A DNA stretch of 64,000 nucleotides from Burkholderiales bacterium (GTDB lineage Bacteria > Pseudomonadota > Gammaproteobacteria > Burkholderiales > SG8-41), in contig JAYTWR010000083.1 in assembly GCA_043743335.1 (NCBI GenBank), positions 29,371 through 93,370 of the forward strand. The letters run 5' to 3'. The translations under genes and the position numbers were made by a program. Positions 49,566-57,569 of the stretch are shown piece after piece. Within the stretch, counting starts at the first letter, position 1, and the number at the start of each line of letters is the position of its first letter. The notes under the pieces were generated by a model. It made no database searches. It had not been told where the DNA came from and worked only from the letters and a program-made list of their open reading frames with translations.

Positions 49566-54239
<4,674 letters not shown>

Positions 54240-54500
54240 AGGCAGCCTCAACAAATAATCCAATAAAATCAAATACTTAAGTGAACAATATTGCGCCGCC
54301 ACAAAAAAGCCGTGGCGGAAACAAAGTTTTAGGAGTGAAACCGTTTAAGTCTACCGGTACCAAGGCCTTGCTTCAATAGGGAATTTTGGGCCTTGGGATG
54401 CTGCTGCGTAGCGGGCACGGGTAGTACGTTTAAGGTGGGGGATTGCGGATGCTGCGGCCGCAGCATGTCGGCATGTCGGCGACGGCACTGAGCGCCTAGG

Positions 54501-54812
54501 CTAGACATGGGGCATGATTTTAAATCGGTGTTTCACGCAACCCTCACGCCCCGCTTGGGTTTTTAGCCGATGCGCCATGCTCTGCGCCGGGGTCGCGTTC
54601 TCGGGCAGGGTGCAGGTTCGCTACGCCGTTCACGCCAGCCCGGGTGGTGTGCGTCGCGCACCTGTGCGATCAGTGGTTCGATTTTCGCATCTTTGCACGC
54701 CAGAATGTTCGCCGCACTGGTGTAACCCGCGTCCGCGGTCAGTATCGTCACCTTGCCGCTGGTCTGCGGCTGGGCACACCATGCCGACTTTCAGCAGTTT
54801 TGCAATTGACAC
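54501..54812 (-). pseudogene. DDE transposase fragment (IS4/IS5 superfamily, IS1182-like), frameshifted and truncated
   Basis: Three frames each carry a piece: SIAKLLKVGMV.., TILTADAGYTSAANILACKDAKIEPLIAQVRDAHHPGW.., MAHRLKTQAGRE... Only ~100 codons remain, with no intact N- or C-terminus. Confidence 0.6.
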
Positions 54813-54834
54813 TGACCGCCCTGCTGTCTATTGT
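54806..54834 (+). promoter_or_regulatory. Sigma70-type promoter of the retron transcript
   Basis: TTGACA (54806-54811), 17-nt spacer, TATTGT (54829-54834). The predicted start near 54841 coincides with the left inverted repeat. Confidence 0.6.
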
Positions 54835-54838
54835 CACC

Positions 54839-55010
54839 ACAGCAGCACGCCTCAAGCCGATGCACGGTTGACTATTCTTGTGATACTGGCCGCGTGTCTC
54901 TGCGGGGTTACCCCGCAGATATGCACTACCGCACTACTCAGCGCATGAGCCGCGTTATGCGCGCATAAACACGCTCATGCAAGACCAGCGAAGTTGGGGC
55001 GTGCTGCTGT
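54839..55010 (+). ncRNA. msr-msd: Retron msr-msd non-coding RNA region (a2 repeat, branch G, msr hairpin, msd hairpin, a1 repeat)
   Basis: 17-nt inverted repeat ACAGCAGCACGCCTCAA (54839-54855) / TTGGGGCGTGCTGCTGT (54994-55010), 16 WC pairs plus 1 G-U. G54856 sits in an A-G-C context directly 3' of the left arm. Hairpin TCTGCGGGG-TTA-CCCCGCAGA (54899-54919). Composite hairpin 54943-54980 around the palindrome TTATGCGCGCATAA. The region is immediately upstream of, and co-oriented with, a retron-type RT. Confidence 0.7.
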
Positions 55011-55023
55011 TTTACCTGGGCCA

Positions 55024-56370
55024 ATGACGACACAACGCAATCGACACTTAGTCACGCTCGGCATGGCCGACGCCCTGCTCGCCGGGGCACGCCATCCTGT
55101 TTCTGCGCGTACGCGGTTGGAGCATGCGCTCGGTAGCCGTGCGCGTTGGGTTGGCAATCTCGCACGCACGCTGGTCAAGCGCTTTGCAGGCGACTGGCGA
55201 GATACGCAACGCGATAACTTGGCACGCGAGATTGAGGGGCTTCCTGCGTTCCAACGTGCGTGCCTAAGTGCGCGTCCCCCGCGCGTACGTCACATACCCG
55301 TAACGCCCTCACGCATGGCGTCGTTGCCTGTTGCGCTGATGGACTGCGTGGTTCCCGATTTGCCTACGCCGCGCGACGTTGCGCGCTGGCTCGACTTGAG
55401 TCTGGATGAATTGCTGTGGCTCACCGGCCCGTTGGAATATCCACTGCGCAATGACGCACCGGTCACCCACTATCAAACGCGCTGGGTACACAAGCGCAGC
55501 GGCGGCATGCGCTTGATCGAGATACCCAAGGTGCAATTGCGCGCGCACCAGCGCCGCTTGCTGCATCGTCTGCTGGATTATGTGCCTGTGCACGAGGCCG
55601 CGCATGGCTTTCGCCCACGGCATTCATGCGTCACCAACGCCCGCCCACACATGGGGCAAGCCGTGGTAGTGCGCATGGACCTCGAAGATTTTTTCGGCAG
55701 CATCGGTGGCGGCAAGGTCTACAAGACGTTCACTGCACTCGGCTACCCGGCTGCTGCAGCCACGGCGCTAACACGGCTCACCACCTGCGCCACACCGGCT
55801 GACGCGTTGGCCCCCACGCTGACCACGCTGGACTGGCACGCACGCAAGCGGCTGCAAGCGCCACACTTGCCGCAAGGCGCACCCACCTCACCCGCCCTGG
55901 CCAATTTATGCGCATTCAACTTTGATGTTCGTGTGCAAGCCTTGGCCGAGAAATTCAGTGCGCGTTACACACGCTATGCCGATGATTTAACGTTCTCCGG
56001 CAATGCGGAATTTCGCCATCGCGCACACGCACTGCAAGCGCGCGTCGCGGCCATTGCCACAGAAGAAGGCTTCCGCATTAACCATCGTAAAACCAAGGTT
56101 ATGCCATCCGCCACGCGTCAGCGTGTCACTGGCATCGTGGTCAATCGCACTACCAATATTGCGCGTGTCGATTTTGACCGGCTGAAGGCGACACTACACA
56201 ACTGCGCCAAACACGGGCCTGCCACTCAGTGCATGACTGATGTTTACACATTCAGGAATCACCTGGCCGGGCACATTGCCCATCTATCTGCGATACACCC
56301 CGTGCGCGGTGCACGGCTCAGGCAGATGTTCAGTCGCATATCATGGAGTCGTGGAATGGTGGATCACTGA
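55024..56370 (+). CDS. ret: Retron-type reverse transcriptase with N-terminal extension
   Basis: RT motifs in order: GGMRLIEIPK, AHGF, VTNARPH (NAxxH), VRMDLEDFFGSI, LPQGAPTSPALANL, YTRYADDLTFSG, INHRKTKVM, QRVTGIVVN. The track start (TTG 54994) lies inside the a1 repeat, so I use the first ATG (55024). ATG 55315 or 55339 are alternatives that would give a canonical ~340-350 aa RT. Confidence 0.85.
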   Translation: MTTQRNRHLVTLGMADALLAGARHPVSARTRLEHALGSRARWVGNLARTLVKRFAGDWRDTQRDNLAREIEGLPAFQRACLSARPPRVRHIPVTPSRMASLPVALMDCVVPDLPTPRDVARWLDLSLDELLWLTGPLEYPLRNDAPVTHYQTRWVHKRSGGMRLIEIPKVQLRAHQRRLLHRLLDYVPVHEAAHGFRPRHSCVTNARPHMGQAVVVRMDLEDFFGSIGGGKVYKTFTALGYPAAAATALTRLTTCATPADALAPTLTTLDWHARKRLQAPHLPQGAPTSPALANLCAFNFDVRVQALAEKFSARYTRYADDLTFSGNAEFRHRAHALQARVAAIATEEGFRINHRKTKVMPSATRQRVTGIVVNRTTNIARVDFDRLKATLHNCAKHGPATQCMTDVYTFRNHLAGHIAHLSAIHPVRGARLRQMFSRISWSRGMVDH

Positions 56371-56398
56371 AGGCTCCTCGCCGCAACCTCATTGACCG

Positions 56399-56668
56399 CT
56401 ATTGCGCCACAAACCGCTGCACCCGCTTGCCCGAGCGCACTTTGCCGGTGAACAAATAGCCGGGCGAATACGCCGCAGCGCAGTTCGAACGCGCAAAACG
56501 ACTGCTATCACCCAGACAGGCAATCAACCACGGAATGGTGTTTTCGCCCAGCCGCGGCACACGGTCCAGCAATTCACGGCGACCGCGCAAATTGTCATTG
56601 GATTCAACGCGTTGCTTAATTTTCTTACGCAGTTCGCTGATCTGCTGGGCGAGAAAAATTTCACGCAA
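56399..56668 (-). pseudogene. IS110-family transposase fragment (central/C-terminal piece only)
   Basis: The 89-aa ORF (QISELRKKIKQ..LLDRVPRLGENTIPWLIACLGDSSRFARSNCAAAYSPGY) is a degenerate match to the IS110 pattern L..IPG(I/V)G......L.A.(L/I)GD..RF.S....AAY.GL.P. The DEDD catalytic N-terminal domain is absent. It abuts the hemF stop. Confidence 0.5.
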
Positions 56669-57569
56669 CCCACTCCTTCGCTACCAAAAAGTTCTCATAC
56701 AACGCCGCCTCGCGCGACCCCGCTTCCGGCTTCCAGTCGTAACGCCAATTCACCACCGGGGGCAGCGACATGAGTATCGATTCGGCGCGTCCGCCGGATT
56801 GCAGCCCGAATAGCGTGCCGCGGTCGTAGACCAGGTTGAATTCAACATAGCGTCCGCGGCGGTAGGCTTGAAAATCACGTTCGCGCTCGCCGTAGGGCAG
56901 GTCGCGGCGGCGCTCGACGATGGGCGTGTAGGCCTTGAGAAAATGATCGCCCACACTTTGCATTAAGGCAAAGCAGGTGGCGAAATCGGGCGTGTGCAGA
57001 TCGTCGTAAAAAATGCCGCCGATGCCGCGTGGTTCGTTGCGATGCTTGAGATAAAAATACGCGTCGCACCACTTTTTGTATTTGGGGTGCAAATCAGCGC
57101 CGAACGGCGCCAACGCATCGCGGCAGGTTTGATGAAAGTGCTGCGCGTCTTCGACAAAGCCGTAATAAGGCGTTAAATCCATGCCGCCACCGAACCACCA
57201 CACCGCGTCAGCGCCGGGCTTCACCGCGCAAAAGAGCCGCACGTTCATATGCACTGTGGGCACCATGGGGTTGCGTGGGTGTAGCACCAACGACACGCCC
57301 ATCGCGTCGTACGAGCGGCCGGCGAGTTCAGGCCGTGTGGCGGAGGCCGACGGCGGCAGGCCGGGGCCATAAACATGCGAGAAGCCCACGCCCGCACGCT
57401 CGAACAGGGCACCGTCTTCCAGGATGCAGGTGACGCCGCCACCACCACCGTTGGCGGGCGGGCGTGTCCAAGCGTCGCGCGAGAAAGCTTTGCCGTCGCG
57501 CGCGCTTAAGTCATCAACGATGCGGGCCTGCAGGGATTCGAGATAGGTTTTTACGGGTGCGGTATCCAT
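56661..57569 (-). CDS. hemF: Oxygen-dependent coproporphyrinogen III oxidase
   Basis: 302 aa. [11 protein letters not shown] and [11 protein letters not shown] signatures. Confidence 0.95.

Follow-up and report, generated by a model that had tools for sequence, protein, structure and literature searches.

A 64,000-nucleotide (nt) stretch of a contig from a Burkholderiales bacterium (JAYTWR010000083.1; hereafter the window, by which we mean the whole stretch that was analysed) encodes, at positions 55024..56370 of the plus strand, a retron reverse transcriptase (RT) of 448 amino acids (aa) plus a stop codon, with some 100-110 residues ahead of the usual start of retron RTs and with no effector gene at its side. 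We consider it very probable that we are dealing with an intact and self-contained retron of two parts, an ordinary member of an already catalogued orphan clade that is effector-free by nature, and not a damaged element. Two conclusions bear the weight of this reading: the N-terminal extension is a real, translated domain that is part of the working protein, and the missing effector is the normal state of the family, not the outcome of damage by insertion sequences (IS). The initial annotation of this DNA started from the premise that functional retrons are accompanied by an adjacent effector; for this clade the premise fails, and effector-free branches were already on record (Mestre et al., 2020; PMC7736814).

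The N-terminal domain of the reverse transcriptase

The open reading frame (ORF) is free of stops from the TTG at 54994 or the ATG at 55024 through 56370. Pfam places RVT_1 at aa 155-371, and in the alignment with the RT of Ec86 residue 47 of the latter corresponds to residue 147 of the window RT, with the retron RT core beginning at about residue 115, which confirms the extension of about 100-110 aa that had been noticed initially; the LPTPRD segment occupies aa 113-118 (55360-55377) and the GGMRLIEIPK block aa 160-169. The affiliation with retrons is clear from the NAxxH motif of region X, here NARPH (aa 205-209; 55636..55650, plus strand), the catalytic YADD (aa 318-321; 55975..55986, plus strand) and the VTG triplet of region Y (aa 368-370; 56125..56133, plus strand), with H209, the YADD and G370 invariant in an alignment of 99 homologues, and from the adjacent non-coding RNA (ncRNA) closed by a1/a2 repeats. 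Retron RT structures are also the best fold matches in a Foldseek search, DRT2 and DRT9 structures giving weak matches only, and all 25 best PADLOC matches listed are retron RT models, which argues against membership in the UG/Abi (DRT) group.

The extension is predicted to consist of two parts. In the AlphaFold2 model of the full-length protein, for which a 99-sequence alignment served as input (mean predicted local distance difference test score, pLDDT, 94.4; predicted template modelling score 0.90), residues 1-80 (55024..55263, plus strand) form a five-helix bundle (helices 4-19, 25-36, 41-53, 60-72 and 74-80), with pLDDT values of 89-98 within the full model and 90.9 for the isolated domain. 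Residues 81-115 (55264..55368, plus strand) form a conserved Pro-rich linker (PPRxR...LPDLPT) that leads from the bundle to the RT core and is extended and confidently placed; its conserved residues are P86, L105, P111, L113, P114 and T115. In a protein search we obtained over 100 homologues, 435-455 aa long, that are 45-68% identical to the window RT and cover 97-98% of the query, and alignments of 21 and 99 sequences contain the conserved N-terminal motifs ALGLADALLAG, ALG..ARW with the invariant W42, R63, AW at positions 79-80, PPRxR and LPDLPT. The ratio of nonsynonymous to synonymous substitution rates (dN/dS; Nei-Gojobori, 11 locus pairs) is 0.09-0.53 in the first 85 or so codons versus 0.07-0.38 in the RT core, and these N-terminal codons are under purifying selection, if somewhat relaxed. 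Homologues that start uniformly at the equivalent of 55315-55339, downstream of a neutrally evolving region, an outcome which the initial annotation had envisaged, are thus not what we find.

With a hidden Markov model built on the domain, we find it immediately ahead of the RT core at 70 of 84 related loci (median E 2.5e-17); these 84 comprise 80 from contigs of one genome per species and 4 places (3 distinct genomic loci) reached via exact-protein look-ups. Two PADLOC profiles already span the extension, namely RT_other (1e-136, aa 8-444, 455 bits) and RT_outgroup (7.7e-130, aa 29-441). Residues 1-109 alone, on the other hand, give zero Pfam or PADLOC matches, and the isolated domain model has no significant Foldseek match in PDB (best E=4.3) or BFVD (best E=0.76), so that the extension is, as first stated, no recognised domain. 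When the domain profile was searched against 1.84 billion representative proteins, 556 cluster representatives (50% identity clusters; E up to 1e-3) were found to carry it. The matches sit at the N-terminus of the RT, the rare exceptions being mis-called starts or chimeric calls; those short matches that were inspected are contig-truncated copies of the same RT, and we saw no sign of a standalone domain or of its fusion elsewhere. The domain is basic (median pI 10.2), its conserved positions belong mostly to the hydrophobic core (A15, A17, L19, G21, L36, W42, I70, A79), among the polar residues D16, R31 and R63 alone are well conserved, and the conserved positions include neither a catalytic-type motif nor a transmembrane segment.

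These properties bear directly on the first of three alternatives that the initial annotation put forward, a novel fused effector or sensor module. A real fused domain with an unrecognised fold is indeed present, but the effector role finds no support in the absence of a catalytic motif; sensing or binding is possible. A single-protein retron in which the N-domain serves as effector or sensor, analogous to the RT-TIR, RT-Toprim and RT-protease fusions, strikes us as quite improbable. With only about 80 folded residues, conserved mainly in the hydrophobic core and devoid of a catalytic-type constellation or a transmembrane segment, the domain differs from the known fused effectors of retrons, which are C-terminal, recognisable enzymes (Mestre et al., 2020; PMC7736814), even if the very existence of such fusions (Mestre et al., 2020; PMC7736814), the restriction of the domain to this RT family, in which it is always fused to the RT, its lack of a significant structural match in PDB or BFVD and the want of any other candidate effector in the 84 loci all speak in favour of this idea. 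Furthermore, evolution that is relaxed compared with the RT core, together with the failure to detect the domain in 14 of the 84 loci, is unlike what a conserved catalytic module displays, and the related myxococcal RTs with N-terminal extensions are those of type XIII, which have separate partner genes.

The closest solved structure is that of the Retron-Eco1 (Ec86) RT, type II-A3 (PDB 7v9x/7v9u), with a sequence match at E=2.8e-48 and, for 7v9x_A, a Foldseek E of 2e-19 with a template modelling score of 0.82 on the target and 27% identity. The two proteins have the NAxxH, YADD and VTG motifs in common, whereas the 320-aa Ec86 RT lacks anything equivalent to the first 100 or so residues or to an insertion of about 35 residues at aa 252-287, and Ec86 is partnered by an adjacent nucleoside deoxyribosyltransferase-like effector. 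This insertion (approximately 55777-55884), located between fingers/palm segments, is family-wide, contains an invariant W271 and two confidently modelled helices, and is followed by the HLPQGAPTSP block.

The msr-msd RNA and the start of the gene

Upstream of the RT gene lies an msr-msd ncRNA of 172 nt (54839..55010, plus strand), which is closed by the a1/a2 inverted repeat and ends 13 nt before ATG 55024. A sigma-70-type promoter (54806..54834, plus strand; -35 TTGACA at 54806-54811, 17-nt spacer, -10 TATTGT at 54829-54834; 10/12 matches), the only such site in 54300-56700, precedes it; the predicted transcription start, about 5 nt past the -10 box, is the first base of a1, and similarity to the closest homologue locus (L001) starts exactly at the -35 hexamer. 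The a1 arm, ACAGCAGCACGCCTCAA (54839..54855, plus strand; 17 nt), is 94% complementary to the a2 arm with which it pairs, TTGGGGCGTGCTGCTGT (54994..55010, plus strand). Directly 3' of a1, in the context AAGC, the sequence offers a candidate priming (branching) guanosine at position 54856 of the plus strand. Simon et al. (2019; PMC6868368) locate the priming G of retrons in a conserved AGC where the a1 stem ends on its inner side, and G18 of the RNA, that is G54856, is present in at least 90% of the sequences in the 43-sequence alignment A3, which draws on at least 43 loci; G54856 may well be the priming residue.

The remainder of the RNA, all on the plus strand, comprises a variable msr hairpin (54857..54891, minimum free energy fold), which differs among homologues in length and sequence, a near-invariant msr hairpin, UCUGCGGGG-UUA-CCCCGCAGA (54899..54919; helix 2, family consensus CUCYGGGGnUACCCCRGRG), which is 96.4% paired in the alignment, and a putative msd with approximate boundaries (54930..54993) that, by analogy with the census retrons T1894, T1913 and T1928, would be the template for a multicopy single-stranded DNA (msDNA) of about 65 nt. 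The msd stem-loop (54943..54980) is built of an outer helix (54943-54950/54973-54980) and an inner one (54955-54959/54964-54968); pairing reaches 92.7% in helix 3 and 94% in helix 4, with compensatory changes in 11 of their 12 pairs. Most related loci have an RNA of the same design ahead of the RT, with a1 starting approximately 165-185 nt upstream; in the homologues a1 ends in CCAA followed by G and a2 opens with UUGG, and the arms differ in sequence and stay complementary. Across A3, the middle hairpin is nearly invariant; the variation in the a1/a2 and msd stems is compensatory. RNAalifold yields 25 consensus pairs, 20 of them with double-sided compensatory changes; 93.5% of the cells are paired versus 32-48% in controls slid by 1-3 columns, the compensatory cells number 141 versus 20-42 in the slid controls, and none of 500 shuffles reached the observed values. 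An Rfam search of positions 53500-57500, with E values of up to 10 allowed, gave nothing but a chance snoRNA-like match, and no Rfam family fits the RNA.

The position of this RNA also informs the choice of the start codon. Since the ncRNA ends just ahead of the ORF, the start would be fixed at ATG 55024 and little room remains for a classical Shine-Dalgarno (SD) sequence. In 50 related loci, the first in-frame start follows a2 at a median distance of 11.5 nt, and the encoded N-termini all open with the '...LA.A.LAG' helix. Thus, ATG 55024 is our preferred start: it aligns with the annotated GTG start of L001 and leaves helix 1 (aa 4-19) whole, and the same 448-aa protein is called in a second assembly (P0270), whereas the NCBI call (P0001; 435 aa, from ATG 55063) would remove part of the conserved helix 1. 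The homologue alignment, the position of the ncRNA and the second assembly together lead us to correct the start to 55024 from 55063. That the candidate starts lack a good SD, as noted initially, is real, yet common in the family: no obvious SD is seen before 55024, and many of the a2-to-start spacers inspected in the 50 loci, by eye and unscored, are likewise without one.

The reading of the extension as an untranslated leader, with the RT translated from 55315 or 55339 and its effector deleted by an IS-driven rearrangement, was the second alternative in the initial annotation, and we assign it next to no probability. In its favour are the lack of an obvious SD before 55024 and the weak transposase remnants on both flanks; it is confronted with conservation at the protein level across phyla, dN/dS well below 1, a confident fold, an ncRNA that ends just ahead of the long ORF in about 50 loci, many of them equally SD-less by eye, and the fact that in none of the 84 homologue loci does the RT stand beside an effector whose loss one could postulate. 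We reject untranslated status because of protein-level conservation, purifying selection, the confident fold and a start right after the ncRNA.

Several observations on gene calling belong here as well. The database starts of P0169 and P0152, and of several other family entries, lie too far upstream and read through the ncRNA, and such over-long calls probably explain the extra 68 or so N-terminal positions (1-68) of the PADLOC RT_other profile. At three loci (L027, L033, L077), the N-domain motif (M...LA.AFL.G) starts directly behind a2 in a frame other than that of the RT core, the latter as placed by tblastn, which suggests frameshifts, due to assembly errors or marking pseudogenes, in some metagenome-assembled copies.

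A family without conserved partner genes

The 84 related loci come from at least six phyla; the 80 from contigs of one genome per species represent Burkholderiales, Myxococcota, Acidobacteriota, Planctomycetota, Verrucomicrobiota, Actinomycetota and others. When all ORFs of 80 aa or more that lie no farther than 5 kb from the RT are clustered, no cluster is found in more than 8 of the 84 loci, and distance and strand are variable; nor is there a conserved small neighbour among ORFs of 30-130 aa within 1.5 kb. Of the small-ORF clusters only two keep a fixed position, and both are merely the conserved ncRNA in translation; the largest cluster, with 34 loci, is GC-rich and of low complexity, varies in position and strand and most likely reflects composition. 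The called neighbours of the homologues are housekeeping genes (cytochrome oxidase, dehydrogenases, peptidase M16, efflux pumps), and the scanned neighbour genes gave no PADLOC match. The individual candidates for a partner were rejected: the upstream gene of L060 and L069 is peptidase M16, that of L002 has a sub-threshold PaaA_PaaC match alone and no PADLOC match, and the neighbours of L025 and L001 have neither a Pfam domain nor a PADLOC match. The 84 loci have no conserved neighbour that could be an effector gene, and aa 1-109 contain no recognisable fused effector domain, which sets the family apart from tripartite retrons. Homologues that always carry an adjacent effector, deleted in the window alone, would have been the natural counterpart of the loss scenario; no such effector is conserved.

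In the window, the retron is flanked by gltB (49566-54302, minus strand) and hemF (56661-57569, minus strand), and no further credible ORF lies between the end of gltB at 54302 and the boundary of hemF at 56661, in agreement with the earlier observation that no other intact ORF stands beside the RT. The two IS scars reported at the same time are in part upheld: transposase fragments are present on the minus strand on the left (54563-54751, DDE_Tnp_1, E=0.021) and on the right (56399-56668, Transposase_20, E=0.033), but the Pfam support for both is weak. The conserved retron unit opens with the -35 box, at 54806, some 55 nt beyond the end of the left fragment. The remnants on both sides hint at a horizontal arrival of the retron; loss of an effector through IS is an unnecessary assumption because an adjacent conserved gene is found in none of the 84 homologue loci.

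Within genera the picture is one of stability. Flanks and positions are the same in L025, L026 and L032 (Mitsuaria/Roseateles) and in L060, L062 and L069 (Planctomycetes/Kuenenia), and the Bryobacterales loci L035 and L066 have the retron at the same chromosomal position with flanking genes alike; for the Burkholderia loci L005 and L008 the comparison is limited to the RT genes. Such shared flanks suggest stable vertical inheritance as opposed to residence on a mobile island. One could accordingly imagine a domesticated, mostly vertical retron without any toxin, the particle acting as a decoy or sponge or having a role in regulation or stress, with the N-domain adapting the RT to this task. 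The location of the loci among housekeeping genes, outside defence islands, the flanks kept within the Mitsuaria/Roseateles, Planctomycetes/Kuenenia and Bryobacterales groups and the spread of the family over at least six phyla would fit, but a function of this kind has been demonstrated for no retron and the transposase remnants that flank the window copy hint at horizontal arrival; we deem the idea rather unlikely.

A trans-encoded effector, the third of the initial alternatives, appears possible, if unlikely. Here, the particle would control an unlinked toxin or nuclease, or a conserved host protein, and the N-domain would be the docking site, a task to which a well-folded basic domain without an enzymatic signature is suited. 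Mestre et al. themselves raised this possibility for orphan retrons (PMC7736814), the typed retrons investigated so far depend on an effector (Mestre et al., 2020; PMC7736814), and a cis partner is found in 0 of the 84 loci. Against this stands the finding by the same authors that most genomes with orphan retrons have no homologues of the known retron-associated proteins (PMC7736814); besides, defence modules normally stay linked, which allows joint transfer, and no candidate-like gene was noticed in the 64-kb window, in which no systematic scan was made.

The clade to which the window retron belongs can be named with some caution. The best RT models are the untyped PADLOC profiles RT_other (PDLC02949) and RT_outgroup (PDLC03740), over nearly the whole protein; 13 of 14 scanned full-length carriers of the N-domain gave PADLOC matches, all best with one of these two and with RT_XIII only from about aa 100 on, and of the members the actinobacterial and myxobacterial ones have the highest scores, above that of the window RT. 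Branches without an associated protein cluster were described in clades 2 and 11, clade 11 being essentially actinobacterial, and it was suggested that such orphan retrons might have trans effectors or another function (Mestre et al., 2020; PMC7736814). In the census of Khan et al. (PMC10849725), terminals 1823-1928 are Actinobacteria plus one proteobacterial entry, 1875, and the ncRNAs of these terminals have the GGGGnnACCCC hairpin and the same RNA design. A profile of A3 (nhmmer) matches T1875 (1.5e-10), T1873, T1841, T1884, T1823 and T1840, with E from 1.5e-10 to 3.6e-5; it matches neither the clade-10-like T1765 and T1795 nor T1894, T1913 and T1928, which are similar in design by eye only. 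The clade thus apparently corresponds to orphan clade 11 of Mestre et al., and practically all of its members have the N-terminal extension. These orphan-clade retrons (RT_other/RT_outgroup; terminals 1823-1928) share with the window copy the full-length profile match, extension included, the ncRNA design and the lack of an associated cluster; the window copy differs from clade 11 of the literature in that it lies between gltB and hemF on a chromosome that is not actinobacterial. The relatives nearest to it are up to 68% identical, those at 45-50% include Burkholderiales, and the papers on the clade (Mestre, Khan) do not discuss the N-terminal domain or the breadth of the family; our literature search for effector-less or standalone retrons with N-terminal extensions gave nothing specific to this clade.

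Two other groups invite comparison. Type XIII (Mx162, Sa163, Ne144, Mx65; clade 10 of Mestre et al.) provides the next-best RT model (RT_XIII, 2.7e-95), which scores 318 bits and matches from aa 107 only, as against the nearly full-length match to RT_other. The type XIII RTs have an extended N-terminus of unknown function too (Simon et al., 2019; PMC6868368), and both groups show signs of vertical inheritance; however, the approximately 106 positions of the RT_XIII profile ahead of the shared core are not alignable with the N-terminus of the window family, and the type XIII partner genes, encoding a winged-helix/SWIM protein and a HEAT/ARM protein (PMC7736814), are not seen as a cluster within 5 kb in the 84 loci, so that, with RT_XIII not the best model, the window retron does not belong to this type. 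The Retron-Eco5 (Ec107) branch in clade 2 is the other orphan branch, consisting of RT and ncRNA mostly without an associated protein; it is a different, separate RT clade, found mostly in Gammaproteobacteria, its profile RT_Ec107-like scores 1.5e-61 with the window RT, and with 307 positions this PADLOC profile has no room for a comparable N-terminal extension. A 'putative reverse transcriptase' of M. xanthus DK1622 (ABF86969/Q1D0F5) is a family member, and the 90% cluster of Q1D0F5 contains no Mx65-named entry. In the Myxococcus qinghaiensis locus (L070) the Asn of the region X motif NAxxH is replaced (FAEPH), a substitution of the Asn being reported for Mx65 as well (Simon et al., 2019; PMC6868368); Mx65 may or may not belong to the family of the window RT.

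Several facts weigh against an intact, naturally effector-free member of clade 11 and have to be set against the evidence above. The assignment to clade 11 is indirect, via the ncRNA similarity (1823-1884) and the PADLOC label 'other', and clade 11 was described as essentially actinobacterial, whereas the present family is widely distributed among Proteobacteria, Acidobacteriota, Planctomycetota and Verrucomicrobiota. The N-termini of 14 of the 84 loci are too diverged for detection with the profile, and what the N-domain does is something that we only infer. Finally, T1840, T1856, T1912 and T1914 gave no RT-DNA in E. coli that was visible by polyacrylamide gel electrophoresis (PMC10849725). 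In the same census, RT-DNA was sequenced for T1840 (95 nt), T1894 (68 nt), T1913 (72 nt) and T1928 (80 nt), in E. coli provided with the RNA and RT only (PMC10849725); of these four, our profile reaches T1840 alone.

The retron particle and its meaning

How an effector-less retron of this kind might operate can be sketched as follows. A single promoter would drive the 172-nt msr-msd RNA and, 13 nt further on, the RT gene with its helical domain and linker of about 110 codons. The RT would bind its own RNA and, if retron biochemistry is any guide, take the 2'-OH of G54856, where the a1/a2 stem ends on its inner side, as primer. The msd region, approximately 54930-54993, would then be copied into an msDNA of 65-95 nt, a range suggested by the four retrons with sequenced RT-DNA from the same region of the tree; in T1894, T1913 and T1928, the template extends from about 15-20 nt past the conserved hairpin up to just before a2 (PMC10849725).

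For the N-terminal bundle we tentatively favour, without much assurance, the role of an additional surface with which the RT-RNA-msDNA particle binds nucleic acid or docks, as would suit a basic, non-catalytic module. More generally, the domain may be an accessory module that binds RNA or DNA, or that docks within this particle. A candidate target would be the near-invariant GGGGnnACCCC hairpin, which is likewise clade-wide. A toxin, in our opinion, the N-domain is probably not. A bolder version of this proposal holds that the clade is a lineage of at least six phyla without any toxin effector, in which the N-domain has co-evolved with the hairpin, and in which either the particle is the end product or the domain is a minimal effector or sensor; this we regard as decidedly doubtful.

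Retrons are now viewed as three-part defence systems composed of the RT, the RNA or msDNA and a toxin, and a large clade described here does not fit this view. With 556 clusters that carry the N-domain, this clade has so far been sampled mainly as a genome-editing reagent. The present analysis adds that the clade extends far beyond Actinobacteria, that it has one covarying ncRNA design and no conserved neighbour, large or small, and that a confidently folded N-domain without a significant structural relative is its protein hallmark. For annotation, the warning is that such loci should not be called 'degraded' retrons. The N-domain is the obvious handle on how an effector-less retron produces an output, and should the clade prove to consist of effector-free retrons, or the N-domain prove to be a minimal effector, this would break the rule that retrons are tripartite toxin-antitoxin systems.

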